Shown here one piece after another: positions 220 to 59,776 of a DNA stretch of 64,000 bases. Both the position numbers and the translations under genes were made by a program. Under the pieces are notes generated by a model. That model was given only the letters and a program-made list of their open reading frames with translations. It ran no database searches and had not been told where the DNA came from. Location of the stretch: positions 79,955 through 143,954 of the forward strand of contig DKCV01000025.1 of NCBI GenBank assembly GCA_002449265.1, in the 5' to 3' direction. This DNA comes from Bacillales bacterium UBA6865 (GTDB taxonomy: Bacteria; Bacillota_I; Bacilli_A; RFN20; CAG-826). How positions within the stretch are numbered: position 1 is the stretch's first letter; every line of letters starts with the position of its first letter.

Positions 220-690
220 TCATTTGCGATTATGACCCGGTTGAAACAAAGCCGGGTTTTCTTTTGCTTTTGTCCATCCACGTTCTTTAAGTGCCATAAC
301 TACCACTTCCGCGCACCGATGAGGATCTTCATTAATTTCGTTTCCCCAGAAGCGGATTACGAAATACCCTTGTTCCTCTAGCTTCTGATTCACTTCTTTG
401 TCGCGAGCAATATTACGTTCAATCTTTGGAATCCAGTAATCTAGATTTTTATGAATTTTAGTTTTGTTTTCTTCAAAGTGATAGCCGTGCCAAAACTCGC
501 TATCGCAAAAAACCGCAACCTTGTATTTTTGGATAGAAATATCAGGATGCCCATATACATAGCGGGTATTGTGACGATAACGAACGCCCATGCGATAAAG
601 TTCTTTTCTTAAAGCAATTTCAATGCCCGTATTTTTCCCTCGGATCCGGCTCATGACGTAAGAAATTGTCTCTTTGCTGCGTTCTTTCAT
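220..690 (-). CDS. vsr: Very-short-patch repair (T/G mismatch) endonuclease, Vsr family
   Basis: N-terminal SRIRGKNTGIE, PDISIQKYKVAVFCDSEFWHG and IERNIARDKEV..L...G..VIRFWG follow the Vsr motif order. Length is typical at 156 aa. Confidence 0.85.
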   Translation of the reverse strand: MKERSKETISYVMSRIRGKNTGIEIALRKELYRMGVRYRHNTRYVYGHPDISIQKYKVAVFCDSEFWHGYHFEENKTKIHKNLDYWIPKIERNIARDKEVNQKLEEQGYFVIRFWGNEINEDPHRCAEVVVMALKERGWTKAKENPALFQPGHNRK

Positions 691-6626: not shown

Positions 6627-7718
6627 ATGCAAATCAAGCGATCAAAAGAAATGGGGCAAGGTATCAAAAGGCTTGTCGCGATGATGGATGAAAATGAGGC
6701 TCGCGCGGAAGCCTATAATGATTATTTATCGCATCGAAACTTTTCTATCTATAAAGTCGCAAAAAAATCATTTCAAGATGGGCTAAGCTCAAAAAAGGCT
6801 TTTTTAGAATCTACGAAGAAATATTTCCTTCCAAAAAATGGATTTTCTTTAGAAAAAGAATCATTTGATGCGATTTGTGAATTGAATTCAAAAATCTTTG
6901 CAAATAACCCATATTATGAAGCAATTCATTTTGGGAATCAGAAGAAAAACGGTTGGGAATTGCGCCAATCCTCCTATGAGCCATTCCAAGGTTTTGTTTA
7001 TAATGAAATCATCGTTAAACCCCACTCCTATTTTAAAGAAATCACTCCATTTGGTTTTTTTAAAGAAAGATTCCCTTATTTAGAAATTCTAGAAAATGAT
7101 AAAAATTGGATGAGCGTCACCCCTCACGAAATCTTAACGATGTTTACCCCGATAAAAGAGGCAAAAGGGAAGGTTCTTACTTTCGGATTAGGAATGGGTT
7201 ACTACGCTTTTATGGCTTCCATTAAAGACGATGTCAAAGAGGTCACTATTGTGGAAAAAGACAAAAACGCAATTTCACTCTTTAACGAATTCATCCTTCC
7301 GCAATTTCCTAATCGATCAAAAATTAAAATCATCCACGAAGATGCTTTTCAATTTGCTTCTACCATCACTGATAAAGAATATGACACCATATTCGTCGAC
7401 ATTTGGCATCTACCGCTTGATGGCTTATTCCTTTATCTTCCTTTTAAACGAATATTTCGTGACTTCAAGGAGACGAAAATCTCCTATTGGATTGAGAAAA
7501 GTATTCTTGCTTTATTAAGGAGAACTTTAATTATCCTTATCGATGAAGAGTATCAAAAAGAGATCAAAATCAAATACACATTCGCGGATAACGAAACTGA
7601 TGCTCTTATTAATTCCTTGCATTATCTATTACAAGAAGAAACAATTGAAAACGTTCACGATTTGTTCGTATTTTTAGAAGACGACAATTTAAAAAGAATC
7701 GCCGCGCAATTAGATTAA
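6627..7718 (+). CDS. Class-I SAM-methyltransferase / spermidine-synthase-like fold protein; substrate unknown
   Basis: VLTFGLGMGYYAF (motif I-like), VTIVEKD (acidic post-I), EDAF and DTIFVDIW. No DPPY/NPPY DNA-methyltransferase motif. Confidence 0.45.
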   Translation: MQIKRSKEMGQGIKRLVAMMDENEARAEAYNDYLSHRNFSIYKVAKKSFQDGLSSKKAFLESTKKYFLPKNGFSLEKESFDAICELNSKIFANNPYYEAIHFGNQKKNGWELRQSSYEPFQGFVYNEIIVKPHSYFKEITPFGFFKERFPYLEILENDKNWMSVTPHEILTMFTPIKEAKGKVLTFGLGMGYYAFMASIKDDVKEVTIVEKDKNAISLFNEFILPQFPNRSKIKIIHEDAFQFASTITDKEYDTIFVDIWHLPLDGLFLYLPFKRIFRDFKETKISYWIEKSILALLRRTLIILIDEEYQKEIKIKYTFADNETDALINSLHYLLQEETIENVHDLFVFLEDDNLKRIAAQLD

Positions 7719-8207
7719 AGAGTGCTTTGTCTTCGCACTCTCTTTAATAGCGGTTTCTTTATTCGGGTAAAACTCCACGTGAAGGTTAAGATCATGCCTA
7801 CGAAGAATTTTTTCTAATTTCTCGTAATGATTTTTGTTATCTTGATGATTCGCCCAGTCTTCAATTTCTTCTAAAGTGACTAGTCCATCGTGCCAAGAAT
7901 CTAATTCACCATTTCTAGCGCCTTTGAGCAATAAAGAAAGGAGGTCAGAGAAATTGAATGGTTGCAATTCCGGAACGGCGTCCCCATTCACATAATCTTC
8001 AAAAAGCATTTCTCTTAAAGTGATTTCCTTAAAGAATAGGAATAAAGAATCGAGGTCAGAAGAAATCCATCTCCCCACTTCTTTTTCTTCTTTTCCAAAA
8101 GGGGCAGCTTCTTTAGAAGAAACATATAAATATGCATCGTTTTCCGTGTGGTTTAAAATAGAATAAGGATCCACTAATGAACGAATTTTAACCCAGTCGT
8201 ATTTCAT
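7710..8207 (-). CDS. Hypothetical 165-aa acidic protein, stop-start coupled to the giant helicase gene
   Basis: The ATG lies 3 nt after the helicase TAA (GGG TAA AAG ATG). No family recognised. Its 3' end overlaps the convergent 6627-7718 CDS by 9 nt. Confidence 0.5.
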   Translation of the reverse strand: MKYDWVKIRSLVDPYSILNHTENDAYLYVSSKEAAPFGKEEKEVGRWISSDLDSLFLFFKEITLREMLFEDYVNGDAVPELQPFNFSDLLSLLLKGARNGELDSWHDGLVTLEEIEDWANHQDNKNHYEKLEKILRRHDLNLHVEFYPNKETAIKESAKTKHSLI

Positions 8208-8210
8208 CTT

Positions 8211-8720
8211 TTACCCATTCCGTCCTTTGATAAAGACATAATCATCTTCTCTAACGATATCAAGTCGTTGATTGACGTTCGCTTTTAAAGCTAAATCAAG
8301 GTGTTTGCGAGATTTTTCTTTTAAAGAAGAGAAGCCAAAGAGTGTCGAGACTTGTTTAAAGAGGTCAAGCACACTCATCTTCCCCTGTTCTAATAAGATA
8401 TCAGCAATCGCGTTTCCTAATTCGATAAAGGAAATATCGGAAATTTCTCGCCTCTCGTTTTCATCATTAAGACGATAGTAACGATATTCGTTCATCGAAC
8501 GGTCTTTGTTCCAATAGAAAGTCACGCCGCCAAGCATTTCTTTATTTGGGGCTAATTGAAGAAGGACACTATTGATGACATCACGGACGTTAGAACCGAT
8601 TCGCGTTAAGTGGTAGGCTTCGCGAATTCTTTCATCGAGAAGATGGGCTGATATTGGCGTTTCCGCATAAAGAACATTTTCAACAAAGTTCTTAAGGAAG
8701 CGAGCAGCTTCCGTCTTGTT
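8211..8720 (-). other. Domain: C-terminal DUF3320-type tail (aa ~1810-1978)
   Basis: Position and LYAETPISAHLLDERIREAY...R.G..V fit the tail usually seen on this helicase family. Recalled from memory, not verified. Confidence 0.4.
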
Positions 8721-11700
8721 CGAAAAATCGATTTGTAATAATGGAGAGGAAGGATCCTCATGATATGCTAAATAAGGAATCGCATAAGGATGAGATACCG
8801 TTTCTTTCTTTTTGAAGGTGAAAGGAATGCCAGAAGGAGAAAATTGTTGAACGATTTTTTCTTCTCCTTTGTTTTTCGAATTAATAGCTTTGACGATATT
8901 TTTAATCACTTCTTGAGGGTGATCGAGATATTCGACACTCCAAACTCGATGCAAGTTCCATCCTAATTGCTTTAAGACACCAGGCTCAACGATATTTCGG
9001 TCACGGCAAGTTGGCGAAGAACAATAAGAATCACCATCCACCAAAATTCCCAAAGAATAATGGTTTTTGTTTGCTGGATCAGTTACGGCAACATCAACTT
9101 TAAAAGAAGAAGAACCAACGTTAGTCTTCACATCATAACCAAGTTTCTTTAAATCGAGGGCAATGAAATCGGCAACGCTTGTAGAGGAAGCAGCGATATG
9201 GTTCTTCACATTATTTGGGAGGATGGAAGTTCCATGTTCTGCAAATAGGAGGAAACTCTTTAAATAGGAAGCCCCTGCATTCTTTGCCTTATCGCTATCA
9301 ATGTCTTCAGGTTTCATGGAGGTGAAAACAATCATTTCTTCCCGCGCACGAGTAATCGCTACATTTAATCTTCTTTCCCCTTTTTCTCGGCTAAGAGGAC
9401 CGAAATTTAATGAGAGTTTGCCATTATCTTTAGGCGCGTAGGTCGTCGAGAAAAGAATCACGTCTCTTTCATCGCCTTGGACGTTTTCTAAATTCTTCAC
9501 AAAGATAGATTCGCCACCTGGATTCTTGCTCTCATAAGAAGGAATCTTCTTTTCGATTAAGTCTTCGATTAAGTTTTGTTGTGCTTCATTGAACGTAACA
9601 ACACCAATTGAATAAGAGGAAAGCTTAGGGTTCTTGAGTCGACGGGCAATTTCATCCACAATCATGGACGCTTCTTTGCGGTTAACACCACGCTTAATTT
9701 CATAAGTTCCGCCAACATAGACGGATTTTACAGATGATTTTTCATTCACCGCCGATGGGAACGTGAATAAGCTATTGTCATAGAATTTGTTATTGGAGAA
9801 AGCAATAAGAGCTTCGTGACGGCTACGATAGTGCCAAATTAAGCGCTCACGTGGTAGACCTAAAGCAATAGAATCATCCAATAAGCTTTCTAAATCTTCG
9901 CTCACGCTATTTAAAATCGTGCCATCGTAAGCGTGACCGCCATTCGCGACAAAGAAACTCGTCGGTGGCATCTGCTCTTGGTCACCTGCGATTATCACGG
10001 ATTTTCCACGAGCAATCGCACCAATAGCCTCACTAGTAGGGATTTGGCTCGCCTCATCGAAAATAACGACATCAAAAGAATAAGTATTGATATCGAGATA
10101 TTGAGCAACCGTAATCGGGGACATCAAAAAGCACGGACATAAGGTACGAATAAGCCTTCCATAATGGTCGAAGATTTGTCTTAACGAAACACCACGACCG
10201 CCATTTTTTACCAATTTTCTAAACTGATAAGTTTCGGTTGAGGGAGCGCTACTACCACTAGAAGGATATAAGCTAGTAATCCTAGAAGCGGTTTCGACAA
10301 CGCTCGTTTTGCAGAAATCATCGATGGCCTTTTTAAAGAGAGAAATTTGTTCTTCCGTAAGCTTGGAATTCAAAGTCGCAAGTCCGCTTTCCGAAAGCCC
10401 ATCGCTCAAAATCCGGTAAGATAAAGAGGCTAAATAAGCGGAAAGAAGATCGGTTTCTTTAATCTTCCCTTCTTTAAATAGAGCAATAAGCTCAGTAGGA
10501 ACATATTTTGCGGTTTCGTCCATTACCGAAAGGAAGCTAGACCATTGCGAAAGCCGCCCTTTGCTTGAAATTGCATCACTTAAAGAAGAAGCGGCATGTT
10601 GATAATAATCCGTGGAATCACTATATAAGTCCAAATCAAATTGGTATTTTTCTTTGAGATTTAAAAGTTTTTCTTTTAGTTCAGCGCGTCCATTTAAGAA
10701 AGAAGAGCGCGCATTAGAGAATAGATAACTTCCATCGGTTGCTAAATGGCGAATTGCTTTATCGATATCAGCCATAGAGTAAGACTTACTAGGACGCATC
10801 TTATTGCGTAAAGAAATCACTTCCAACGTGCGTTCATAAGAAGCTTTCGCCGCTTCAACATCCGCGACACTTCTTAAGGAAGTTGCGCTAAAAACGTGAA
10901 CAGCAAAAGGATCAGCGTTTTCGATTTGTTTCACTAAAGAATTAAGCTCACTAAGAGAGGCAAAACTAGATTCGAGGTTTTTGCGTTTCAAAGAATTTTT
11001 GTCCTTTGCAAAAGGCTTTAGTTTCTTTTTTAGCGAATTATAGAGATGATACTTTTCAAAGAGGTTAGCGTCATTCAGTGCAGTAAGCTTAGCATTAAGT
11101 GCCTCTCCATCTTCTTTTAAGAATCCATCCTCCCAATGCGCGAGGAGAGATTCTTGAATCTGGTTTTTATGGAGTAACAAATCTAAATAACTTCGCAAAC
11201 TCTCAGCCTTTGACACAAATAACTCATTATCGAGGAAATCTTGGTAAATAATGGAATTCTTTTGCAAAATCTCCACAATTTTGGCATAACTTTCAACGTT
11301 TTCCTTTGTTTCCACTAGACCTTTATCTTTAAAGAAACAATTATATACGGAAAGGTGGAAGGCCTTTAAATCGTTAATGAGGGTAGGAAGTTCTTCAAAG
11401 AGAGAATCGCGAGATTCAAGAGAATAGTTACGAGAGGCAAAAGGCAAAAACGCGTTTCCATAGTAGCCGCCTAATGAGGAAGCTTGCAAAGAAAGATTCT
11501 TGATTTTTTTCTTCGCTTCCTCAAAAGATTCTAATGTTAAAGAGGAAGAATATTCATGGCTTGTTTCATAAAGACCAGCGTAAGAACGAAGCTTTAAATA
11601 ATTAATAATCGCTTCATAAGTCGACATGACGTATTTATCGCGGTTATGAAGGGCGAATAAATCATGGTTTAAGGCATCCCGAGCTTCATCTAAAGACGAA

Positions 11701-14147
11701 GAGTCCTTCTCAAAGGATTCTGGTCGCTCAATCGGCCCAATATCAAGCATCTTACCTAAAGAATTTAAGACATCGCTTTTGGCCGTATTGATGGAAGGAA
11801 TAGACAAACAGAATTGCCCAATCCCCAAAGAATCAAGCCTCTTTTTGACCACTTCTAGCGCAACACCTTTTTCAGCGACGAATAGGACAGACTTTCCATG
11901 ATACAAAGCGTTAGTGATCATATTAGCGATTGTCTGACTTTTTCCTGTCCCAGGCGGGCCATCGAGAATAAAGGAAGCCCCCATCGCACTAGCGTGAATC
12001 GCTTCGATTTGGCTTGAATCGGCTGGCAAAGGAATTGCTAAAGAGGAAGAAGAAAGCGTCTTATCAAAATCTTCCTTTTTAACGGTATCTAAAACCGGAT
12101 AATCTCCAAAACCGTTTACAAAAGACGAAACAATTTTGTTTTCCATCATTTTTTCGCGATGCGTTTTGATATCGTTCCACATAACAAAACGAGCGAAAGA
12201 GAATAACGCTAAAGAACATGGGTTTTCTAAAATGGCCCAGCCCTTAAATGGCGCGATACATTCACGGATGAAGTTCAAAATGAGGCGGATATCAACTTCC
12301 CCGTTTGCTTTTTTCGGTAAATCGCCGAAAAGCGGTGAGAAATCTAAATCAAAATTTTCACGGAAATACTCAAAGATAGTTGTGTTGAGCTCCAAATCAT
12401 CGAAATTGTATTCAATCGTGTAATTAGAACCAATCCGTCGACGTGGCATTTTAACAGGCAAAAGGAAAAGAGGAGAATAAATAGCACCTTTCCCATGGAT
12501 TGCAGCCTTTTCATTATCGAACCATTTAATGATTCCAATCGTTAAAAACAAAGGGTTACAACCGCTTTCTTCAATCGCAGTGTTCGCTTTTCTAGCGAGG
12601 TTTTTTAAATAAGAATCGGTATCCCCTTCTTTGCTGGAGAAATAAAGGGTTTTCTTATTCAAAAGTTCTTTGAAACGATTGCCTTCACTATTAGGGAAGG
12701 AAGAAGGAACGTTTCTTTCTTCTAAATTTAAAGCGATGTTATCACCAACGAAAATCGACATCTTCTCGTTTTTAGCAAGAGAAGAGAGAAGAACTTCGCT
12801 ATCAAGATTGAGCGCTTGTGGGAATGAAGACGAAAACTTCATGTTAATTAAGCGGTTATTCATCGATAAATCGAGAAGTTTTTCTTCCCAATAATCGAAT
12901 TTATTTTTCTTAGAAGGCGCGTCTTCCGCTAAATATCGGCGTTCTTCAACATCAATGACAGGCGTAGAGTAATCTTTTTTGGCAAAGAAATCTGGGAAAT
13001 TGATTTGGATTTCTTTGCCCGCTTTTACTGGGGTAGGAAGCGGAAGCAAATGGTCTTTTCTAGAAGCGTAAATATCAACCGCGTAAAGGAAAAAGCGAGA
13101 ATTTTCTAAAACACTATATCCGATTTCAGTAGCAGTCGAAAAATTAGCGGATTTTTCTTTCGAAAAACAAGTTGGGTCAAGAAGCAAAAGACGATTAAAG
13201 CCTTTGCTTGCAAGGTTTAAAAGTTCCGTTCCATTATCCAATACCGGAGTACCGAAAAGTGTTTCATCAAGATAAATGCCAACAAGCGGCTTTTCTTTGG
13301 TGAAAACTAGAATTGGCCTTAAAGAAATACTTTCAGCGATTGAGGCGAATAAAAGGCAAAAATCTATGCAATTCCCGCTTCCTTCTTTTAAAACTTGATA
13401 AGGTAATTTCACGCGAGAAAGGCAATCTTCGGGTGTTTCCGCCCCCATGGATAATGAGAGATTTCGCTTCATTATCGTTAGATAAATTGCATCCAATTCT
13501 TCAATTATCTTATTGGGATCATGATAAGAATATCCACCAAACGTGGAATGGTATTTTTCATCAAGTACAGTTTTTGCCTCTCCTTTGATTTTTTCAATTT
13601 CTTCATCGTTAGGAGTAACGTAAGAAGCAATAAGTTCTTCCACCGCTTCTCTGCCCAAAGAGCTTGAAATCGGGTCAAAAAAGAAATTCACCGTTTTGGT
13701 TGCGATTACTTCACCGTCTTCCGATACGATTTCAATAGTGAGTTCGCCAGGAACCGAGGCATCTAGAGCATATAAAGAGCTGCAGTCAATTGAATAAACG
13801 AAATGATCAATTTCTGTGATTTTATCTTTTTCTAAATATGAAATTTGAATCGGATCAATCGAACAATATGCTGGGGTGACTGAAAAGCGAGCTATGCAGT
13901 TACTAATCGAAGCAGAGGAGTGATTTTCTATACTTATTTTCTTCAAAAAAGAAAACGATGTGCTTCTAAGATTTCCATTCTCTATCTTGTTAAAAGAATC
14001 GGCTTGATAAGCTGGATAGTTCCAACTTGGAGAAAGGTTGATATCAAGGGTGAGTTTTGAATTCGTTGTCGGTGTTAGTTGCATAATGTTCATATTATAA
14101 AGGGTAAACGCCAAATAGTTTTCAAGAATAAAAAATTTTTCATCCAT
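8211..14147 (-). CDS. 1978-aa multidomain UPF1-like SF1 helicase fused to a Vsr/DUF559-fold nuclease (DUF4011 / AAA_11 / AAA_12 / REase / DUF3320-type architecture) with an N-terminal transglutaminase-like module
   Basis: Walker A ILDGPPGTGKSQT (aa 727-739), motif II VVIFDEASQ (aa 1360-1368), GDQEQMPP, VVTFNEAQ, QGDERDVILFS, RRLNVAITRAREEMIVF. Nuclease-like FKVDVAV...ILVDGDSY...RDR...LGWNLHRVWSVEY. Confidence 0.85.
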   Translation of the reverse strand: MDEKFFILENYLAFTLYNMNIMQLTPTTNSKLTLDINLSPSWNYPAYQADSFNKIENGNLRSTSFSFLKKISIENHSSASISNCIARFSVTPAYCSIDPIQISYLEKDKITEIDHFVYSIDCSSLYALDASVPGELTIEIVSEDGEVIATKTVNFFFDPISSSLGREAVEELIASYVTPNDEEIEKIKGEAKTVLDEKYHSTFGGYSYHDPNKIIEELDAIYLTIMKRNLSLSMGAETPEDCLSRVKLPYQVLKEGSGNCIDFCLLFASIAESISLRPILVFTKEKPLVGIYLDETLFGTPVLDNGTELLNLASKGFNRLLLLDPTCFSKEKSANFSTATEIGYSVLENSRFFLYAVDIYASRKDHLLPLPTPVKAGKEIQINFPDFFAKKDYSTPVIDVEERRYLAEDAPSKKNKFDYWEEKLLDLSMNNRLINMKFSSSFPQALNLDSEVLLSSLAKNEKMSIFVGDNIALNLEERNVPSSFPNSEGNRFKELLNKKTLYFSSKEGDTDSYLKNLARKANTAIEESGCNPLFLTIGIIKWFDNEKAAIHGKGAIYSPLFLLPVKMPRRRIGSNYTIEYNFDDLELNTTIFEYFRENFDLDFSPLFGDLPKKANGEVDIRLILNFIRECIAPFKGWAILENPCSLALFSFARFVMWNDIKTHREKMMENKIVSSFVNGFGDYPVLDTVKKEDFDKTLSSSSLAIPLPADSSQIEAIHASAMGASFILDGPPGTGKSQTIANMITNALYHGKSVLFVAEKGVALEVVKKRLDSLGIGQFCLSIPSINTAKSDVLNSLGKMLDIGPIERPESFEKDSSSLDEARDALNHDLFALHNRDKYVMSTYEAIINYLKLRSYAGLYETSHEYSSSLTLESFEEAKKKIKNLSLQASSLGGYYGNAFLPFASRNYSLESRDSLFEELPTLINDLKAFHLSVYNCFFKDKGLVETKENVESYAKIVEILQKNSIIYQDFLDNELFVSKAESLRSYLDLLLHKNQIQESLLAHWEDGFLKEDGEALNAKLTALNDANLFEKYHLYNSLKKKLKPFAKDKNSLKRKNLESSFASLSELNSLVKQIENADPFAVHVFSATSLRSVADVEAAKASYERTLEVISLRNKMRPSKSYSMADIDKAIRHLATDGSYLFSNARSSFLNGRAELKEKLLNLKEKYQFDLDLYSDSTDYYQHAASSLSDAISSKGRLSQWSSFLSVMDETAKYVPTELIALFKEGKIKETDLLSAYLASLSYRILSDGLSESGLATLNSKLTEEQISLFKKAIDDFCKTSVVETASRITSLYPSSGSSAPSTETYQFRKLVKNGGRGVSLRQIFDHYGRLIRTLCPCFLMSPITVAQYLDINTYSFDVVIFDEASQIPTSEAIGAIARGKSVIIAGDQEQMPPTSFFVANGGHAYDGTILNSVSEDLESLLDDSIALGLPRERLIWHYRSRHEALIAFSNNKFYDNSLFTFPSAVNEKSSVKSVYVGGTYEIKRGVNRKEASMIVDEIARRLKNPKLSSYSIGVVTFNEAQQNLIEDLIEKKIPSYESKNPGGESIFVKNLENVQGDERDVILFSTTYAPKDNGKLSLNFGPLSREKGERRLNVAITRAREEMIVFTSMKPEDIDSDKAKNAGASYLKSFLLFAEHGTSILPNNVKNHIAASSTSVADFIALDLKKLGYDVKTNVGSSSFKVDVAVTDPANKNHYSLGILVDGDSYCSSPTCRDRNIVEPGVLKQLGWNLHRVWSVEYLDHPQEVIKNIVKAINSKNKGEEKIVQQFSPSGIPFTFKKKETVSHPYAIPYLAYHEDPSSPLLQIDFSNKTEAARFLKNFVENVLYAETPISAHLLDERIREAYHLTRIGSNVRDVINSVLLQLAPNKEMLGGVTFYWNKDRSMNEYRYYRLNDENERREISDISFIELGNAIADILLEQGKMSVLDLFKQVSTLFGFSSLKEKSRKHLDLALKANVNQRLDIVREDDYVFIKGRNG
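8883..9185 (-). other. Domain: Vsr/DUF559-like (PD-(D/E)xK fold) nuclease module (aa ~1655-1755)
   Basis: FKVDVAVTD...SLGILVDGDSYCSSPTCRDRNIVEPGVLKQLGWNLHRVWSVEYL. Confidence 0.6.
9318..11969 (-). other. Domain: SF1B helicase core (aa ~727-1610) with a ~620-aa Lys/Glu/Leu/Ser-rich insertion between Walker A and motif II
   Basis: Walker A maps to nt 11931-11969 and DEAS to nt 10044-10070. The insertion is aa ~740-1359. Confidence 0.8.
12168..12905 (-). other. Domain: DUF4011-type region (aa ~415-660)
   Basis: WEEKLLDLSMNNRLINMKF...NPLFLTIGIIKW...LFLLPV matches my memory of the DUF4011 signature (kLLDLs.rNrLln). Not HMM-verified. Confidence 0.5.
13158..13415 (-). other. Domain: transglutaminase/papain-like core (aa ~245-330) with Cys260 and Asp324 but no His
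   Basis: EGSGNCIDFCLLFASIAESISLRPILVF...LLLLDPT resembles G-x-C-x-x-F...R-P...DPT of Transglut_core. No His occurs in aa 261-330. Confidence 0.45.
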
Positions 14148-14157
14148 TTATCGATAA
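14148..14157. promoter_or_regulatory. Perfect 10-bp palindrome TTATCGATAA abutting the start codon of the giant helicase gene
   Basis: ttatcgataa equals its own reverse complement. No SD sequence and no good -10 box lie between it and the ATG. Confidence 0.35.
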
Positions 14158-14233
14158 CCGCTTAGATTTTTGTTCTTTCGTTTTTTTCTACTACCAATAA
14201 GGGTAAAATCATGAACGAAACTAGGTACCCTTC

Positions 14234-15691
14234 ATGCTTCATTATGAATTAACTAAATCCTATCTCGACTTTCTTGCGAGCCTTCCTTTTAAAGAGCGAA
14301 GCGCGGTTCTATGGCAATCTCAAACCATTCTTTCCATGGCAGGTGGCTATCTCAAAATGAAAGTATTTGACTATAACGATGAGCTTTCTATTTTCCGCGT
14401 TTTTGAAAACACATACCTATTGGTTTTGAATAATTACTCCGTCATTCGTCTTATTGACGGAGTAAAAAGCTCGGTTATTCCTGATTTTAAGCAGGAAGAA
14501 AGCGGAATCGTTATTAGCAAAACAATTAAAGATCTTGTCTCAAAAGACGATACCACTCCTTTAGAGGATGAATTGACTCATTATTTGAAAAGCAATTATT
14601 TTACCTCTTGGTTCATTAAGCTTCTTTCTTATCTACCAAAAGAATATCGGGATTGCTTCGCAAAAAAAGAAGCACCCGTCCCTACATCCTTATCTAAGAA
14701 TAAGGTAGAGGAAAAATGTGTTAAGAAAGAGGAAACCTCATTGTTAAAAAAGGACATAGAACCTGTTTCTCCACCTTTAGCGGTCAAAAAACCGATTGTA
14801 AAACAGGCAATTTTTAAAAATCCACAAATTGAGACGAATGCCAAAACATTTCTAAAGCAAAGAAAAGTAAATATCGACGGAGCTCAATACGAAAAAATGA
14901 TATTGCTTGAACTCCAAGAAGCCTATCAAAAGAGATTAGAAAGAAGAAAAGGCATCAAGCAAAGTGCTCCCCTTCCAAAACTCAAGCACGTTCGTTTCGC
15001 CACAAAGGAAATTCTCATCTCGATCGACAATAAAGACGATTGCTTAGAACTTCTCATGCGGAAAACAAAACAAAACGGTTGTCACTTATCCGATAACGAT
15101 TGGCTGATTTTACTGACGAATACGATTGATGAAAATTTCGCAAAAGATATCGAATCGCGTTATCCTAGCCATGTCACTTATACTGATGACCCAGATAAAG
15201 GCGATTTACGAATCGCATTTATTGTCAAAATTGCGAAAAAAGATGAAGAAGGAATCCCAGGAATCAAAAGAGTCAAATCCAAGACCGCGAATTTCGTAAA
15301 AGAAATGCCTTCTGGTGCCTTTGAAAACGTTGACGATGAAGATTATTTAGAAGCGGAAGAAAGACATGGCAACGGCGAAATTAGACGTGTTAAATCAAAG
15401 GTCGCATATTTTGCTCCAAAACTCCCTGAAGCTAACGCCGATGACTTTGATGATTTTGATTTCAGCCTGGATGAAGATGGATTCTTAATGGATGAAGAAG
15501 AACCGAATGAAGACTATATCAACGAAGATGCCAATGAAATAGAAGAAACTTCTTCTCCTATTTACCCAAAGCATTGGCACTGCTATTTGTGTGGGAAAAA
15601 GAAACTATATTCCGGCGAGCCTGCAGAAACGATCCAACTTGCTAATGGAAAAATCGTGTACCTATGTGCGAAGCATCGCGGAAAGATGTAA
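14234..15691 (+). CDS. Hypothetical 485-aa protein with internal (I/L)(K/R)RVKSK-x-A-x-F repeats, an acidic tail and a C-terminal CxxC...C-x2-H zinc ribbon
   Basis: IKRVKSKTANFVKEMP (aa 343-358) and IRRVKSKVAYFAPKLP (aa 383-398). D/E-rich aa 400-440. HCYLCGKK...YLCAKH (aa 449-481). Divergent from the helicase gene. Confidence 0.5.
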   Translation: MLHYELTKSYLDFLASLPFKERSAVLWQSQTILSMAGGYLKMKVFDYNDELSIFRVFENTYLLVLNNYSVIRLIDGVKSSVIPDFKQEESGIVISKTIKDLVSKDDTTPLEDELTHYLKSNYFTSWFIKLLSYLPKEYRDCFAKKEAPVPTSLSKNKVEEKCVKKEETSLLKKDIEPVSPPLAVKKPIVKQAIFKNPQIETNAKTFLKQRKVNIDGAQYEKMILLELQEAYQKRLERRKGIKQSAPLPKLKHVRFATKEILISIDNKDDCLELLMRKTKQNGCHLSDNDWLILLTNTIDENFAKDIESRYPSHVTYTDDPDKGDLRIAFIVKIAKKDEEGIPGIKRVKSKTANFVKEMPSGAFENVDDEDYLEAEERHGNGEIRRVKSKVAYFAPKLPEANADDFDDFDFSLDEDGFLMDEEEPNEDYINEDANEIEETSSPIYPKHWHCYLCGKKKLYSGEPAETIQLANGKIVYLCAKHRGKM

Positions 15692-15712
15692 AGCCATAAG
15701 TCTAGCAATACC

Positions 15713-15745
15713 ACCTTCCTAACCATTAGGAAGGTTTTTTATTTT
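15713..15745 (+). terminator. Rho-independent terminator
   Basis: CCTTCCTAA-CCA-TTAGGAAGG stem-loop followed by TTTTTTATTTT. Confidence 0.8.
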
Positions 15746-15793
15746 GATTGATTTTTAAGGCCAAAAATAAAATCACAATTGAAAACATAACTA

Positions 15794-15807
15794 ATGTTAT
15801 ATAACAT
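15794..15807. promoter_or_regulatory. Perfect 14-bp palindrome ATGTTATATAACAT (candidate TetR operator) abutting the tetR-family start codon
   Basis: ATGTTAT/ATAACAT inverted halves. It overlaps a TTGAAA-17nt-TAACAT promoter-like arrangement (15779-15807). Confidence 0.45.
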
Positions 15808-16359
15808 ATGTTCATGCCACCAAGACCAAAATTAACAAAAGAAGAAATATTAGATTGCGGGCTGACTTTTGTAGCAGAAAACGGATTTGACAAACTTAAT
15901 GCAAGAGCAATCGCAAAAGATTTGAAATCCTCCACTCAACCAATTTTTTCTTACTTCTTGAACATGGACGATTTGAAGACGGAAATAAGAAAAAAGATCC
16001 TGTGTTTATTCGGAGAAAAAGTAAATTTCAAAAAAGGAATTATTGCGTTTGAAAAAGGGCTAATAGGATTTGCTAGTCTATATCCGCATTATTTTAATGA
16101 GATCTTTTTAAAGGAAAACGATGTTGAGGAGACAAAGAACGAACTTAATCGTATGAGGGATTCTTTAGTTGCTTCTATTGCAAAGGAATTTCTCATCCCT
16201 AAGGAAAAAGCCAATATTGTTTATCTAAATAATTGGATCTATTCGTTTGGGCTTGGAACATTGATCGCAAAAGGGATGCTCCCTTTAAAAGAGGCATCTC
16301 TTGAAGCGTTACTTAAGATTAATTTAGAAGCGACAATCGTCGCCGTGAAAAAGCGATAA
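15808..16359 (+). CDS. TetR/AcrR-family transcriptional regulator
   Basis: N-terminal HTH: KEEILDCGLTFVAENGFDKLNARAIAKDLKSSTQPIFSYF. The start may instead be the second ATG at 15814. Confidence 0.85.
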   Translation: MFMPPRPKLTKEEILDCGLTFVAENGFDKLNARAIAKDLKSSTQPIFSYFLNMDDLKTEIRKKILCLFGEKVNFKKGIIAFEKGLIGFASLYPHYFNEIFLKENDVEETKNELNRMRDSLVASIAKEFLIPKEKANIVYLNNWIYSFGLGTLIAKGMLPLKEASLEALLKINLEATIVAVKKR

Positions 16360-27859: not shown

Positions 27860-28588
27860 ATGCGATTATTATTCATTCGTCACGCTGATCCAGATTATCA
27901 AAATGATTCATTAACCGAAGTCGGCAAGAATGAAGCAAACGCACTTGCGGAATTTCTATCAAAAGAAGAAATCGACGCAATTTTCGTTTCTCCTCTAGGT
28001 AGAGCGAGAGAAACATTGGAAGCGTATTTGCAATTTAGTAAAACCCCCATAAAGCCAATTGTCAAAGATTGGTTACGCGAATTTAATGCGAATACACCGC
28101 ATGACGCAACGCATTCCGCTTGGGATTTTCTTCCTTCAACTTTAGAAGAAGCGGGAGAGGAAGCTTATTCGCCAAACACTTTCTTAACTTCAATTGCCGC
28201 TTATAGAAATAGTGATTTCAAAGAAAAATACGATAAGGTAGCGAGCCATATAGACGAACTGCTTTCTACCTTTGGCTACCTTAGAGAAAAACATCATTAC
28301 AAGGTAAAAGAAGAAAATACGAAAACCATCGCTTTCTTTTGTCATTTTGGGGTAGAAGCCATGATGCTTTCACACCTCATTAATTCAAGTCCAATCACGC
28401 TTTGTCAATATTTTTGTGCTTTGCCAAGTTCCGTTACCACCGTCTATACAGAAGAAAGAAGAAAAGGCATCGCCCAATTTCGTATCAGCGAATTCGGCAG
28501 CGTTTCCCATTTGCTTTTAAAGGGAATGAAACCATCTTTTTCGGCAAGATTTTCAGAAACTTATTCTGATCCCCGCCGTCACGACTAA
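27860..28588 (+). CDS. Histidine phosphatase family protein (PhoE/GpmB-like)
   Basis: LLFIRHADPDY (RH motif), SPLGRARET and a later catalytic-type CHFG. Confidence 0.8.
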   Translation: MRLLFIRHADPDYQNDSLTEVGKNEANALAEFLSKEEIDAIFVSPLGRARETLEAYLQFSKTPIKPIVKDWLREFNANTPHDATHSAWDFLPSTLEEAGEEAYSPNTFLTSIAAYRNSDFKEKYDKVASHIDELLSTFGYLREKHHYKVKEENTKTIAFFCHFGVEAMMLSHLINSSPITLCQYFCALPSSVTTVYTEERRKGIAQFRISEFGSVSHLLLKGMKPSFSARFSETYSDPRRHD

Positions 28589-31500
28589 GCAATTTCTTTC
28601 TGTTTTCCCTGCAAAATCGACACCAAATACATGTGAACTCGTTTTTCTTCACACCCAAATATACGAATGATGTTTTCTTTATAAGTATGAAGCTGATTCA
28701 CATAAGCAGGGTCATCAATGTGGCTCGTTTTATAATCGACGATGTAATAATCTTTCCCAAGTTTAAAAAGAAGGTCGATGAAACCAGAAGAATGAGACAG
28801 ATGGTCATAATAGCCATATTCACTATGGATTTCTCCGTTTTTTGCTAAACGCATAATGGGAAGAGATAAAACTTTATCAATCACCTCGCGGTCCTCTTTG
28901 TCTAGAATGAAAGAAGTATCCCCACTAGCGATATCCGTGAGTTCCAATAAGCGATGCAAATGAATGCCTTTTTCTAATATGACATTTGAAGGAAGCTCTT
29001 CATCAACTAAAGAAATGACTTTACTCGCCCGTTTTTTGATTCTAGGAGTAAACACTAAAGCCTCATCATTAATAATAGGCTCGTGAAATTGAGGTAATTT
29101 TGAGGTTACTTCTCCTTCGAAATAATCACTCATGAAAGAGACTTCATCATGATAATCTTTGCTTTCATAAGATAAATAAGTTAACCAAGACACATTATCA
29201 AAGGCTTTCAGCAAAGAAGGTAAGAAGGTTTTCGTAAACGTCATGATAACTTCTTCTTTATCGTCTTCCCCTTCATCGCTTTTAATCGTTAGGCCCAAGG
29301 ACTCATAGTCTTCATTCACCAGTTCTTCAATGAATTCACGAATTCGTTCTTCCCAATCTTCTTTAGAAAGAGAGCTAAATTGAGAAAAGGAAAAATCGCC
29401 TTCATCTTTTGAAGGAAGTTCATCATCTTCTTCCGTGATGTTATAAGAGCTGTCTAATCCGCTTCCATAAGAAATCTCATCAAGAAGATCTTTTTTCCGT
29501 TCTTCCTTCAACGCGTTTAAAAAGGTAGTAAAGGAATTAATTTGGTATTTTTCCATTAAAGAGGGGAAACAGGCGGAAACAAAAACTCGTGTATAAAGGT
29601 CAATGTCTTTTTCTATACAAAGTCGTTTCTCATAATCAAGATATAAATCGCGAGCAAAACCAAGCAAATAATTCTTTTGAATCAAAAGAGGAATATCTAA
29701 ATAATAACTCTTCCCTAACCGCAAATAGGTTTCTCTTGCTTCAAAGAATAAGGAAGAAGAATCTAATAAAGGTAAAGAAATCGTTTGAATTGTTTCGACT
29801 AAAGAAAGGAATGTTTCATAATCCGCCTTACTAATGACGCCTTCTATGATTTTCTTCTCGATAAAATCGTCATTCAGTTTATAGTGATGCGGCATTTCAT
29901 TAAGCATCGCATAAAGGTTCTCAGCCTTTTTATCATCATCACCCACAATAATCACTTGGTTTTCCGCACGCGTCAAAGCGACATAGAACAAGCGAACATG
30001 GTCGTCCACTTCAGGGTTATTCTCACTATTAACGTAGTTACGCGTGCATAAAGTTTCATAACAAGTTGAATAAGAAGGAGGGAAAGAACTAGAGGCTGGG
30101 GGATCAAAAGCAAAATCAGGAAAGCCAATTCCTCTTTCCTTAGAAAAGACGAAATCAGGTTTACTTCTTTGATCACCACTAGACATCGCATTAAGCGAAA
30201 CTGGCATATAGACAATCTTTCTTTCTAAGCCTTTGGAGGCGTGAATCGTCATCATATCCACTGCATCATCATTATGCGTTAAAGTGTCCGCGCTGAATTC
30301 GAGGGAATAACGATTCATATTCGCGAATAAATTAACGAAACTTTCAATCCCGCTCCCGGTAGATTCGTTCGATAAAACAAGTTGATATAAAGATTCGATT
30401 TTAGAAATATTATCTTCGATATCACCAATCTTATAAAGCTTATCTATGACATGAAAGTTATTGATGATTCCTAAATAAATATCATGGAAAGAGGCATCAA
30501 AATTTTCGGAAGCAAACGTTTCTAATTCTTTCCAAAGAGGATCGCTTTTGATTGCAGATAAGGAATCTAGTTCATCACTAGCGCGCAATAATTCATATAA
30601 ACGTGTATCGCTATATTCATAGGCATAACTTCTAGCGATAGAGGCGAATAGATGCTTAGGATCTTCCTTCCCGCCGCACGTCATCCACTTAAACATTTTG
30701 ATGAGAGATTCAATTAAAATTACCGCATTCGCCTCTCTTAAATTAGTGGAAATGACTTTATTTAATTTGATTCCGTTTTGGCTAAAGAGTTTTTCGTATA
30801 AGCCAAATCGACTCTTCACGCGCATTAAAATGGCAAAGTCGCTTGCCTTACAAGGACGAATCCCTACTGACCTATCATAAACAGGATATCCTTCCGCGAG
30901 TTTTTTCTTGATATCGGTTAAAATCGCAAAGGCTTCCGTTTCATTATGCCCTTTCGCATTCATCTTCGTTTCGGTAAGAGGAAGATTTGGGGTTATGATA
31001 CGAGAAACGCCGAAATGTTCGTAAGGTAAACGATATAAATTCACCTTCGAGTCATAAGAAAGGTGTTCTAAATTATCGTTTTTATAGTCGATTGAGCCAT
31101 GATTAAGTCGCATATAGTAAGAACAAATATAATTGATATCATCTAATAGGCGTTTCCCACTTCGGTAGTTATAATTCATCGCGATGACTTTATGTCCTAA
31201 GCCAGATAGATACCGTTTTTGGCGTTCCCTAAATAAGGCAACAACGCTTCCACGGAATAAATAAATGCTTTGTTTCGCATCACCGACCACAAATAAATGT
31301 GCTCTTTTCCCAGAAGCGTTCGGCTTAAGAAGGCTCTCTAAAAACGCTTCTTGCGCAGGGTTGGTGTCCTGATATTCGTCTACCATGATATAAGAGAAAC
31401 GGCTCCGAATTTCGGAAGCGATGTCTTCATAAGCGGAATCGGTCAATAACGATAATGCCAAATCCGCAATATCGGAGAAAGAGAAAGAATTAGTAACTTT

Positions 31501-32622
31501 TTTAAATTCCAAAAAGCGTTCATCGGCTTCTTTTACTAGCGTCATCAATAAATGAACATCATCTTTTGTTTTTAAGATTTTCTCGTATTCAAAAGCAAGG
31601 GAACCTAGCGTTTCAACAGGCTTAGTTACGCGTTTTTCCGTAGTGACCGCAGTTTTTAAAATCTTCCATGGTTTTTCTAAACGTTCTTTTTCTTCTTTGT
31701 CTAATCCCTTTGTTCTTGTCGTAAGTAAAGGCGAATAGTCCTCGCGAAATGTCTTAATCTTTGAAACAAAAGTCTCATCGTCACATTTAAGCAAAGAAAC
31801 TATCGCTTCATAAAGCGGCTCAGCGTAATTCTCTTCTCGGAAAGAAAAAGCATCATAGCTCTTTCCCCAAAATCCTAGACTAGAAAAAGCGTCTTTCGCA
31901 CTCGAAAAAGAAGTAACGGGATTAACGTAAAGATCATAATGATATTCTGCGAAAGCTGCTTCATAAATCGTATCGATAAGCGATTCACGGACAGAAGTTA
32001 GATAGGCATGATAGAGTTCTTTTGCAAAGAAAAAAGAATAAAAACGTTCATCGTAATGGGAAAGGAAATCTTCCTTATCTTTTTTCCCTAAAGAATCAAG
32101 TTTATCCCAAAGCGACAAAACATTGCGTTTTGCGTGTCTGTCCCCTTTCATGTCAATTTTTTGGATAAAAGAGATTAACGAGGCGCTTTTTGCAGGGTTT
32201 TTATAATATTCAGAAAAAATTTGATCGACAATTTCGCTGCGTTTGGTTTTGGCGATGTTATCATCCAAAACATTTAACTTATCCGCAATTCCTAAACGCA
32301 TCGAATATTGGGAAACTAAATATTGATATAGGCTATCAAACGTCTGGATGTGACTAGAAAGTAATTGATTGGCTTTTTCCTTTTCTTCTTTGGGGAACTT
32401 TGCAAGGATTCTTTCTTTCATTTCGTGGGCAGCGTTATTGGTGAAAGTTAAAACAAGAAGCTCGCTTGGCTTAACTTTATCCCCAAGAATAATTTCGCAA
32501 ACTCGTTCAGAAAGGGTGTTGGTTTTCCCGCTTCCTGCACCGGCCGAAATCAAAATGTCTTCATCGACTGGAGCCACGATGGCTTCCCACTGCTGATCAT
32601 TGAAGCGATTTTTATTTGCCAT
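28585..32622 (-). CDS. addA: ATP-dependent helicase/nuclease subunit A (AddA/RexA)
   Basis: UvrD-type Walker A AGAGSGKT, VDEYQDTNP, and C-terminal RecB-type nuclease IVDYKTSH. Start chosen at ATG 32622 (GGAGAGGGTGACG upstream). Confidence 0.9.
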   Translation of the reverse strand: MANKNRFNDQQWEAIVAPVDEDILISAGAGSGKTNTLSERVCEIILGDKVKPSELLVLTFTNNAAHEMKERILAKFPKEEKEKANQLLSSHIQTFDSLYQYLVSQYSMRLGIADKLNVLDDNIAKTKRSEIVDQIFSEYYKNPAKSASLISFIQKIDMKGDRHAKRNVLSLWDKLDSLGKKDKEDFLSHYDERFYSFFFAKELYHAYLTSVRESLIDTIYEAAFAEYHYDLYVNPVTSFSSAKDAFSSLGFWGKSYDAFSFREENYAEPLYEAIVSLLKCDDETFVSKIKTFREDYSPLLTTRTKGLDKEEKERLEKPWKILKTAVTTEKRVTKPVETLGSLAFEYEKILKTKDDVHLLMTLVKEADERFLEFKKVTNSFSFSDIADLALSLLTDSAYEDIASEIRSRFSYIMVDEYQDTNPAQEAFLESLLKPNASGKRAHLFVVGDAKQSIYLFRGSVVALFRERQKRYLSGLGHKVIAMNYNYRSGKRLLDDINYICSYYMRLNHGSIDYKNDNLEHLSYDSKVNLYRLPYEHFGVSRIITPNLPLTETKMNAKGHNETEAFAILTDIKKKLAEGYPVYDRSVGIRPCKASDFAILMRVKSRFGLYEKLFSQNGIKLNKVISTNLREANAVILIESLIKMFKWMTCGGKEDPKHLFASIARSYAYEYSDTRLYELLRASDELDSLSAIKSDPLWKELETFASENFDASFHDIYLGIINNFHVIDKLYKIGDIEDNISKIESLYQLVLSNESTGSGIESFVNLFANMNRYSLEFSADTLTHNDDAVDMMTIHASKGLERKIVYMPVSLNAMSSGDQRSKPDFVFSKERGIGFPDFAFDPPASSSFPPSYSTCYETLCTRNYVNSENNPEVDDHVRLFYVALTRAENQVIIVGDDDKKAENLYAMLNEMPHHYKLNDDFIEKKIIEGVISKADYETFLSLVETIQTISLPLLDSSSLFFEARETYLRLGKSYYLDIPLLIQKNYLLGFARDLYLDYEKRLCIEKDIDLYTRVFVSACFPSLMEKYQINSFTTFLNALKEERKKDLLDEISYGSGLDSSYNITEEDDELPSKDEGDFSFSQFSSLSKEDWEERIREFIEELVNEDYESLGLTIKSDEGEDDKEEVIMTFTKTFLPSLLKAFDNVSWLTYLSYESKDYHDEVSFMSDYFEGEVTSKLPQFHEPIINDEALVFTPRIKKRASKVISLVDEELPSNVILEKGIHLHRLLELTDIASGDTSFILDKEDREVIDKVLSLPIMRLAKNGEIHSEYGYYDHLSHSSGFIDLLFKLGKDYYIVDYKTSHIDDPAYVNQLHTYKENIIRIFGCEEKRVHMYLVSILQGKQKEIA

Positions 32623-47947: not shown

Positions 47948-48032
47948 GCGGGAATGGCGGAAATGGTAGACGCGTACGTTTGAGGGGCGTATGAGGCAAC
48001 TCATGCCAGTTCGATTCTGGTTTCCCGCACCA
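47948..48032 (+). tRNA. tRNA-Leu (anticodon GAG), type II, CCA encoded
   Basis: Acceptor GCGGGAA/TTCCCGC. Anticodon arm TACGT-TTGAGGG-GCGTA. Long variable arm. T-loop TTCGATT. Confidence 0.85.
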
Positions 48033-59286: not shown

Positions 59287-59361
59287 GGATGCTTAGCTCA
59301 GCGGGAGAGCATCGCCCTTACAAGGCGGGGGTCACAGGTTCAAACCCTGTAGCATCCACCA
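59287..59361 (+). tRNA. tRNA-Val (anticodon TAC)
   Basis: Acceptor GGATGCT/AGCATCC. Anticodon arm TCGCC-CTTACAA-GGCGG. T-loop TTCAAAC. CCA encoded. Confidence 0.9.
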
Positions 59362-59389
59362 CACCTTGCGGATACGTGTAGTCGATAAT

Positions 59390-59473
59390 GGGTGAATAGC
59401 GAAGTGGCCAAACGCGGCTGACTGTAAATCAGCTCCTTCGGGTTCGGTGGTTCAAATCCATCTTCACCCACCA
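59390..59473 (+). tRNA. tRNA-Tyr (anticodon GTA), long variable arm
   Basis: Acceptor GGGTGAA/TTCACCC. Anticodon arm GCTGA-CTGTAAA-TCAGC. CCA encoded. Confidence 0.9.
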
Positions 59474-59476
59474 TCT

Positions 59477-59551
59477 TGGGATGTAGCCAAGTGGTAAGGC
59501 AACAGACTTTGACTCTGTCATTCGCTGGTCCGATCCCAGCCATCCCAGCCA
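59477..59551 (+). tRNA. tRNA-Gln (anticodon TTG)
   Basis: Acceptor TGGGATG/CATCCCA. Anticodon arm ACAGA-CTTTGAC-TCTGT. CCA encoded. Confidence 0.9.
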
Positions 59552-59557
59552 TCATAT

Positions 59558-59632
59558 CTCCCGTTAGCTCAGTGGTAGAGCACTTGACTTTTAATCAAGG
59601 GGTCGACGGTTCGAGCCCGTCACGGGAGACCA
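59558..59632 (+). tRNA. tRNA-Lys (anticodon TTT)
   Basis: Acceptor CTCCCGT/ACGGGAG. Anticodon arm CTTGA-CTTTTAA-TCAAG. CCA encoded. Confidence 0.9.
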
Positions 59633-59647
59633 AATGGGAAAAGCATT

Positions 59648-59684
59648 CGCCTCCGGCGCGCAGGCGCATGGAGGCGTTTCTTCT
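59648..59684 (+). terminator. GC-rich hairpin plus T-tract inside the tRNA cluster (terminator or processing structure)
   Basis: CGCCTCC ... GGAGGCG 7-bp stem with an inner GCGC-GCAG-GCGC, followed by TTTCTTCT. Confidence 0.4.
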
Positions 59685-59690
59685 AAAAAT

Positions 59691-59776
59691 GCCCGAGTGG
59701 TGAAATGGTAAACACGTTGGACTTAAAATCCAATGGAGTTAAATCCTTACCGGTTCAAGTCCGGTCTCGGGCACCA
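59691..59776 (+). tRNA. tRNA-Leu (anticodon TAA), type II
   Basis: Acceptor GCCCGAG/CTCGGGC. Anticodon arm TTGGA-CTTAAAA-TCCAA. Long variable arm. CCA encoded. Confidence 0.9.

Follow-up and report, generated by a model that had tools for sequence, protein, structure and literature searches.

A divergent ProA-like helicase-nuclease gene, probably for defence, at a housekeeping locus of a Bacillales lineage

The window analysed here is a 64,000-nucleotide stretch of contig DKCV01000025.1 from Bacillales bacterium UBA6865. On its minus strand, at 8211–14147, it carries a reading frame of 1978 codons that is the longest open reading frame (ORF) of its first 24 kb. We consider it probable that this gene is a ProA-like single-gene defence helicase-nuclease directed against phages and probably other invading DNA. 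In profile comparisons its product is related to ProA, whose architecture it shares, but is divergent and scores below the threshold; it does not come from an unknown family, since the ProA, PDC-S37 and Hhe models all match it. The family is already catalogued as a PADLOC candidate and as the NCBIfam anti-phage protein ProA, and has a validated relative in Hhe. The kind of system is a known one, already marked as defence in current annotation resources. A first-pass annotation, made from the DNA letters alone, had put the gene forward as a single-gene nucleic-acid defence candidate, and the near-threshold, full-length match to ProA together with the match to PDC-S37 bears this proposal out.

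Relationship to ProA, PDC-S37 and Hhe

The NCBIfam model NF058533, 'anti-phage protein ProA', matched the window protein with 1455.9 bits in a single co-linear stretch that joins residues 63–1940 to model positions 7–1902 of 1903. As controls for this model, proteins of the same architecture from a Klebsiella pneumoniae IncF plasmid, Apibacter and Alkalihalobacillus scored 2225, 2156 and 2088 bits, respectively. The PADLOC model PDC-S37 matched residues 414–1962 (model positions 7–1538 of 1550) with 1008.8 bits and an E value of 1.3e-303. This model corresponds to the core of the window protein from DUF4011 to the C terminus and differs in having no N-terminal module. PDC entries in PADLOC are candidates and not validated systems, and our literature search found no mention of PDC-S37. 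A rough neighbour-joining tree of 62 full-length members placed the window protein in a Firmicute-rich branch, apart from the three ProA proteins that score above the cut-off.

The likeness to ProA extends along the whole chain, which comprises an immunoglobulin (Ig)-like and transglutaminase-like N terminus, DUF4011, a UPF1-like superfamily 1B (SF1B) helicase with a large insertion, an MTES_1575 nuclease and a DUF3320 tail in about 1950 residues. The differences lie in the sub-threshold score and separate branch, in the replacement of His by Lys in the transglutaminase-like domain, and in location: the window gene is chromosomal and syntenic in a housekeeping context, whereas bona fide ProA is plasmid-borne or on islands.

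Matches to Hhe were confined to the C-terminal part of the protein, with the NCBIfam model NF042953 scoring 643 bits over a best stretch of residues 1012–1762 and the PADLOC Hhe model covering residues 1297–1841 (E = 1.1e-130). Like the window protein, Hhe is a single polypeptide with DUF4011, an SF1B helicase and a Vsr-like nuclease. Judging from the model matches, however, the Hhe models do not reach the N-terminal 400 residues, and beyond the helicase and nuclease the two proteins share little identity. It is the N-terminal Ig-like and transglutaminase-like module that distinguishes ProA from Hhe. The Mokosh proteins MkoA and MkoC, as well as UPF1, IGHMBP2, Sen1/SETX, Aquarius and nidovirus nsp13, resemble the window protein in their helicase core fold and motifs, but MkoA, MkoC and the UPF1-like helicases lack DUF4011, the Vsr-like nuclease and the transglutaminase-like module. 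The comparison with Hna and type II Mokosh drawn in the first-pass annotation did not survive these searches, in which the PADLOC models for Hna gave no match at E ≤ 0.1 and those for MkoA and MkoC matched only residues 1353–1617 in the C-terminal helicase lobe (E values of 1e-23 to 1e-26).

The same annotation had called the gene uncharacterised and its family devoid of any experimentally defined function. This is contradicted by the curation of ProA as anti-phage and by published work on Hhe. Hhe is a single gene encoding a helicase and a Vsr nuclease that is reported to be active against lambda, T3, T7 and PhiV-1; its weak activity against T7 is abolished by the nuclease mutation E1731A, and T4 is unaffected (10.1101/2022.06.16.496414). 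In a knockout screen, seven class II genes of T7 DNA metabolism emerged as potential triggers of Hhe, g40 of Bas63 is toxic only in hhe-carrying cells, and phage genes for nicotinamide adenine dinucleotide (NAD) synthesis and gp130 act as counter-defences (10.1101/2024.10.10.617714).

Domain architecture and predicted mechanism

DUF4011, an AAA_11/AAA_12 helicase and an MTES_1575 nuclease are encoded in one polypeptide, all above the Pfam gathering scores (Table 1), which confirms the helicase-nuclease architecture read earlier from the letters; the ORF and every motif quoted then are present at the exact positions in the translation. Within the helicase, AAA_19 and AAA_30 matched the P-loop region around Walker A (residues 711–771), AAA_11 matched residues 1353–1397 (54.5 bits against a cut-off of 27) and AAA_12 matched residues 1421–1610 (72 bits against 27). 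SF1B motifs I (GxGKS/T), II (DE), III (GDxxQ), V and VI (arginine finger) are intact. The insertion of about 500 residues that separates motifs Ia and II is poorly conserved, with a sparse alignment consensus. The proposed DUF3320-type tail was sustained in part: residues 1816–1856 of the window protein reach 21.4 bits against a Pfam cut-off of 25, but the domain is recorded for close orthologues.

The catalytic positions are conserved throughout the family. K736, D1364, E1365, Q1392 and R1600 of the helicase are invariant in all 62 members, and in the nuclease D1685, D1704 and D1716 are each found in 61 of the 62, R1717 in every member and W1730 in 61–62. The earlier choice of K736, D1364/E1365 and D1685/D1704 as key residues was thus well placed. 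Given this conservation of helicase and nuclease catalytic residues in 61–62 of 62 members, the enzyme is presumably active.

A search of Protein Data Bank (PDB) sequences returned UPF1, IGHMBP2 and Sen1 as the closest solved helicases, and the PDB holds no ProA or Hhe structure. A structural model of residues 1297–1978 (m2d7f42ea279f) was of moderate quality, with a predicted local distance difference test score (pLDDT) of 72 and a predicted template modelling score (pTM) of 0.44. Foldseek matched its helicase lobe to UPF1, IGHMBP2, SETX/Sen1, Aquarius and nsp13; this lobe dominated the search, and no independent match to the nuclease or tail was obtained. The last ~180 residues, modelled with pLDDT of about 85–93, form two helix-helix-helix-strand-strand units, and from this order of secondary structure the tail looks like tandem winged helices.

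The N-terminal 400 residues were modelled with AlphaFold from a 16-sequence alignment (mbdb690044a23; pLDDT 86.8, pTM 0.83) as a beta-sandwich followed by an alpha/beta domain. This model drew mostly Ig-like and CARDB-like sandwiches from Foldseek, and the matches spanning both domains were the transglutaminase-like proteins 3kd4 (E = 1.1e-3), transglutaminase TG2 (3s3j, E = 3.5e-3) and 3isr, at template modelling (TM) scores of about 0.2. Weak, sub-threshold matches to Transglut_core or DUF553 were found in 14 of 16 members, with best E values of 2e-4 for DUF553 and 2.7e-3 for Transglut_core; in the window protein itself Transglut_core gave E = 0.27. A profile search of this region against PDB sequences returned no match. 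Although each of these lines is weak by itself, they concur that the alpha/beta domain probably has a transglutaminase-like fold, in agreement with the beta-rich and transglutaminase-like extension described in the first-pass annotation.

The putative catalytic triad of this domain in the window protein is Cys260, Lys286 (at the His position) and Asp324. Of the 62 members, 53 have the Cys, 44 the His and 52 an Asp or Glu at the third position, and the Klebsiella, Apibacter and Alkalihalobacillus ProA proteins carry C, H and E. Proteins of the window clade (at least 57% identity) keep Cys and Asp and have K, R, S, D or E at the His position, and a clade of Clostridia loci (L017, L018, L021, L077, L079 and L080) has neither Cys nor His. 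Because Cys or His is lost in some members, catalysis by the transglutaminase-like domain appears to be dispensable in parts of the family, and the simplest reading of the N-terminal module of the window protein is a binding or regulatory role. A 51%-identity orthologue (locus L153) retains His in its own N-terminal transglutaminase-like domain, and directly upstream of that helicase, on the same strand, lies a separate 448-residue Transglut_core protein (6596–7942 of L153, plus strand).

The module is widespread, but almost confined to proteins of about 1900–2000 residues. An exhaustive profile search of representative proteins, clustered at 50% identity, found it in 6628 clusters at E ≤ 1e-3 and in 1380 at E ≤ 1e-30; a word-indexed search with the same profile gave one match, and the counts are those of the exhaustive search. 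Among the best 150 matches, nearly all of those that are complete proteins have about 1900–2300 residues, which corresponds to the ProA architecture.

By analogy with Hhe, we would expect the helicase to load on, or track along, DNA replication or recombination intermediates of the phage. A UPF1-like putative 5'-3' translocase would be coupled to the Vsr-like nuclease, such that ATP-driven translocation would license the nuclease to nick or cut DNA and phage replication would stop, possibly at the cell's cost. The N-terminal module would act as a regulatory or sensing domain, predicted to be non-enzymatic in this clade because the catalytic His is replaced by Lys, and together with the winged-helix tail it may serve regulation or recognition. 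The trigger, substrate and outcome in this scheme are those suggested by Hhe; observed directly are only which domains the protein contains and how far its catalytic residues are conserved.

Table 1. Coordinates of the helicase-nuclease gene, its domains and motifs, and adjacent features (positions in the window; residues of the 1978-residue translation)
Feature	Position	Strand	Residues	Basis or remark
ProA-like helicase-nuclease, maximal ORF (1978 codons)	8211..14147	-		ORF listing and translation
TATAAT (-10-like) box, abuts M19 ATG	14094..14099	-		orthologue comparison
Ig-like beta-sandwich	13677..14054	-	~32-157	AlphaFold model and Foldseek
Transglutaminase-like (papain-like) alpha/beta domain	13056..13640	-	~170-364	Foldseek, weak profile matches, residue census
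DUF4011	12369..12881	-	423-593	Pfam PF13195, 92.2 bits against cut-off 22, E 4.5e-26
Helicase RecA-like lobe 1, first part with Walker A	11763..12050	-		Pfam AAA_19, AAA_30, AAA_11
Insertion of ~500 residues between helicase motifs Ia and II	10260..11762	-	796-1296	no Pfam match
Remaining UPF1-like SF1B core: Walker B DE 1364/1365, GDQEQMPP, motifs V and VI, R1600	9312..10259	-		Pfam AAA_11, AAA_12
MTES_1575 / Vsr-like PD-(D/E)xK nuclease (D1685, D1704, D1716, R1717, W1730)	8883..9164	-	1662-1755	PF18741, 80.9 bits against 38.2
C-terminal tail including DUF3320 region	8220..8762	-	~1796-1976	Pfam and structure model
165-residue ORF	7710..8207	-		starts 3 nucleotides after helicase stop, overlaps convergent 363-residue gene by 9 nucleotides
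Motif EKLLDLSMNNRLIN			422-435	
Motif GPPGTGKSQT			730-739	Walker A, K736
Motif VVIFDEASQ			1360-1368	
Motif GDQEQMPP			1388-1395	helicase motif III
Motif VVTFNEAQ			1516-1523	
Motif QGDERDVILFS			1557-1567	
Motif RRLNVAITRAREE			1592-1604	
Motif FKVDVAV			1682-1688	
Motif ILVDGDSY			1701-1708	
Motif CRDRN			1714-1718	
Motif LGWNLHRVWSVEY			1728-1740	

Locus, family distribution and alternative roles

The exact window protein is also encoded on metagenome contigs of 169–192 kb. Gene order up to the helicase is def, ylbF, rsmD, coaD, yfiH, an unknown gene, YitT, a 183-residue gene and a divergent 485-residue gene; beyond it follow a 165-residue gene, a convergent 363-residue gene, NUDIX, Sel1, two ABC exporters, an acetyltransferase and Vsr. 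The same order surrounds orthologues at 93, 67, 64 and 57% identity. At 51% the downstream order is still kept, and at 43% the YitT gene is still nearby. Between the same genome pairs, identities of neighbouring proteins (50–80%) bracket that of the helicase (64–67%), which fits vertical inheritance. The 5.9-kb reading frame is uninterrupted at no fewer than seven orthologous loci, and the G+C content across the gene (0.37–0.41) equals that of its surroundings. The organism is apparently a low-G+C member of the Bacillota from a metagenome of gut or rumen. Judged by these comparisons, the gene is not on a mobile island and has been inherited vertically for a long time at one housekeeping locus. 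Metagenome loci fetched through the 363-residue neighbour (g363) included two of the same lineage, both with the helicase, and the other 60 represented a 45%-identity paralogue in an unrelated context.

Elsewhere, relatives of the window protein occur in many phyla, with a patchy distribution in which phyla are mixed. They were found on 487 plasmid records (242 from Klebsiella, 105 from Ralstonia and 36 from Acinetobacter), 212 of them conjugative, and are often flanked by insertion sequences (IS); phage records held one full-length relative. The K. pneumoniae plasmid pM63-1 (L089) carries at 9941–15832 a bona fide ProA (2225 bits) whose sole annotation is 'DUF3320 domain-containing protein'. 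IS1 and IS3 transposases flank it, and an AbiJ-NTD4 gene and a Tn3 transposase are located upstream; megablast of this ProA gene against E. coli genomes gave no match.

We scanned 125 genes within three positions of the helicase at 21 family loci. Strong defence neighbours were Wadjet JetABC, a Pycsar cyclase, a reverse transcriptase, PDC-S46, PDC-S02 and, by Pfam, a TOTE primase. Approximately 5–6 of the 21 loci had such a neighbour and other loci had housekeeping genes; comEC and holA (three loci each) and ordinary metabolism genes were also among the neighbours. The first-pass annotation had suggested enrichment in defence islands as a check; recognised defence neighbours were seen in part of the family and, within ~10 kb, at none of the loci of the window's own lineage. 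Neighbours also matched mad3, mad8, GajB, AriA and RTasHel, but we discounted these matches as generic similarity to ABC ATPases or UvrD, since ABC transporters and a UvrD-like helicase of the window itself produce them too. No partner gene is conserved across loci, and small ORFs directly downstream of the helicase elsewhere are mutually unrelated. Likewise, tblastn against 80 other ProA-type loci found no linkage of the neighbours g165, g485, g183 and g363 outside the window's lineage. As no partner gene is conserved, the family behaves, on this sequence evidence, as a single-gene system.

Several observations weigh against a defence role. The ProA score is below the curated equivalog cut-off of 1500, as are those of the branch-mates P0013 (1467 bits) and P0023 (1386 bits), and the score for Hhe falls far short of the 2000 set as its cut-off. 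The window clade has lost the His that bona fide ProA keeps. Synteny down to 51–57% identity is unusual for defence genes, no empty site was found in the lineage among the two same-lineage loci recovered, and, as noted in the first-pass annotation for the window, integrase, transposase and recognised defence genes are absent from the ~10 kb around the gene; the same holds for its lineage. One window protein, which is neither the focal gene nor among the ten largest, matches the PADLOC candidate PDC-S34 at 3.6e-106; should it be encoded near 8–14 kb, the statement on defence neighbours would change. Our literature search found no publication describing ProA, so that the anti-phage label of that branch derives from NCBI curation alone, and it found neither a mechanism for the ProA/Hhe-type family nor any ProA or Hhe biochemistry. 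In addition, a large DUF4011 gene of P. aeruginosa (PA14_RS11765) is a core gene, present in every isolate, that flanks the defence hotspot cDHS1 (PMC10250203). Likened by DUF4011 content and position only, this conserved chromosomal gene for a large DUF4011 protein parallels the fixed position of the window gene, but it borders a defence hotspot and none was seen in the window.

These points bear on whether the gene encodes a domesticated genome-maintenance enzyme, acting in repair, R-loop removal, replication-transcription conflicts or on recombination intermediates in the manner of Sen1/SETX, Dna2 or IGHMBP2. The first-pass annotation had entered a repair, R-loop or RNA role as its caveat, and the syntenic housekeeping position of orthologues at 51–100% identity, with the long vertical inheritance that it implies, strengthens it. 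Such a role is a serious candidate, although we think it unlikely overall. Consistent with it, the helicase diverges at about the rate of its neighbours, the locus has no mobile-element hallmarks, housekeeping genes such as comEC and holA are neighbours at other loci, P. aeruginosa has a DUF4011 gene in its core genome, Sen1, SETX and UPF1 are the nearest helicases of solved structure, and the His loss is specific to the window clade. It fits poorly with the whole-length relation of the protein to a PADLOC defence candidate and to a family whose curated role is anti-phage, and with a patchy, plasmid-rich family distribution; no known repair partner is encoded adjacent, an AddAB-like pair is already present elsewhere in the window, and a core position is compatible with defence. 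It is distinctly unlikely that a ProA-type defence enzyme has here been domesticated as a constitutive genome-integrity or 'core immunity' enzyme, having lost its His, become coupled to a lineage-specific 165-residue partner and remained at a locus fixed since the split of orthologues that are now about 50% diverged. If this were true, it would provide a natural experiment on the function of the ProA N-terminal module.

The 487 plasmid records, 212 conjugative and including Klebsiella IncF, Acinetobacter and Ralstonia replicons, could instead reflect a primary role in inter-replicon competition, in which the enzyme would cut incoming conjugative or transforming DNA. The rarity of relatives in phage records (one full-length match) and the adjoining anti-plasmid system Wadjet at one locus agree with this, but in NCBIfam ProA carries an anti-phage label, the activity of Hhe was assessed with phages, and plasmid carriage, a common trait of anti-phage genes, is uninformative about the target; we give a mainly anti-plasmid function little credence. 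Scarcely credible is an inactive, decaying remnant of a defence gene: the score under the curated ProA cut-off, the lost His and the lack of both a Shine-Dalgarno (SD) sequence and a strong promoter would suit such a relic, but the long reading frame is uninterrupted at all those orthologous loci, the helicase and nuclease catalytic residues are all intact, and a -10 box is conserved at the start.

With this gene, probably one for a ProA-like defence enzyme, a very large family of giant single-gene helicase-nucleases gains a branch that is divergent and sub-threshold. The loss of His in the window clade, set beside several other lineages from which both Cys and His have disappeared, the unusually stable location outside any island, and the contrast with plasmid-borne bona fide ProA could all help to dissect how infection is sensed by ProA and Hhe and whether housekeeping roles exist among the members.

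Gene start and other features of the window

The first 18 codons of the annotated ORF are not conserved in the 93%-identity orthologue, where the corresponding stretch is out of frame and lacks an ATG; that protein starts at the equivalent of M19. For this reason the true start is probably M19 (14093) or M22 (14084), giving a product of ~1957–1960 residues. The 10-nucleotide palindrome TTATCGATAA at the annotated ATG is not conserved in this orthologue either, and the earlier argument that it points to tight, low-level expression fails, because that ATG is probably not the start. At five orthologous loci (L081, L083, L084, L086 and L152) a TATAAT box lies 0–11 nucleotides upstream of the likely start, with AACTAT(T/G)T conserved further upstream. 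The absence of an SD sequence reported in the first-pass annotation was confirmed, as none occurs at any of these five loci, and a consensus promoter scan found weak promoter-like sites only, with no canonical -35/-10 pair at the M19 site. The closeness of the TATAAT box to the start, together with the lack of an SD sequence, suggests an mRNA that is leaderless or has a very short leader.

The 165-residue ORF downstream matched no family. It is conserved in this lineage alone, where its orthologues (42–84% identity) always lie downstream of the helicase (L083, L084, L086, L152 and L153), and the 80 other ProA-type loci lack it; it carries the conserved stretch LREMLFEDYVNGDAVPELQ. Because it starts 3 nucleotides after the helicase stop it is probably co-transcribed with the helicase, but it may lie outside the system proper.

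A stand-alone Vsr very-short-patch endonuclease gene (220–690, minus strand; TIGR00632, 125 bits against a cut-off of 97.85) occupies the same place throughout the lineage at 77–92% identity, and no cytosine methyltransferase is visible beside it in the longer contig L081. A 1392-residue UvrD-like helicase (28585–32763, minus strand) followed by an 817-residue protein (32612–35065, minus strand) is probably an AddA/AddB (RexAB) pair. A scan of the window with Rfam found no family besides tRNA, represented by a five-gene cluster (Val, Tyr, Gln, Lys, Leu) at 59287–59776 and a separate tRNA-Leu at 47948–48032, both on the plus strand.

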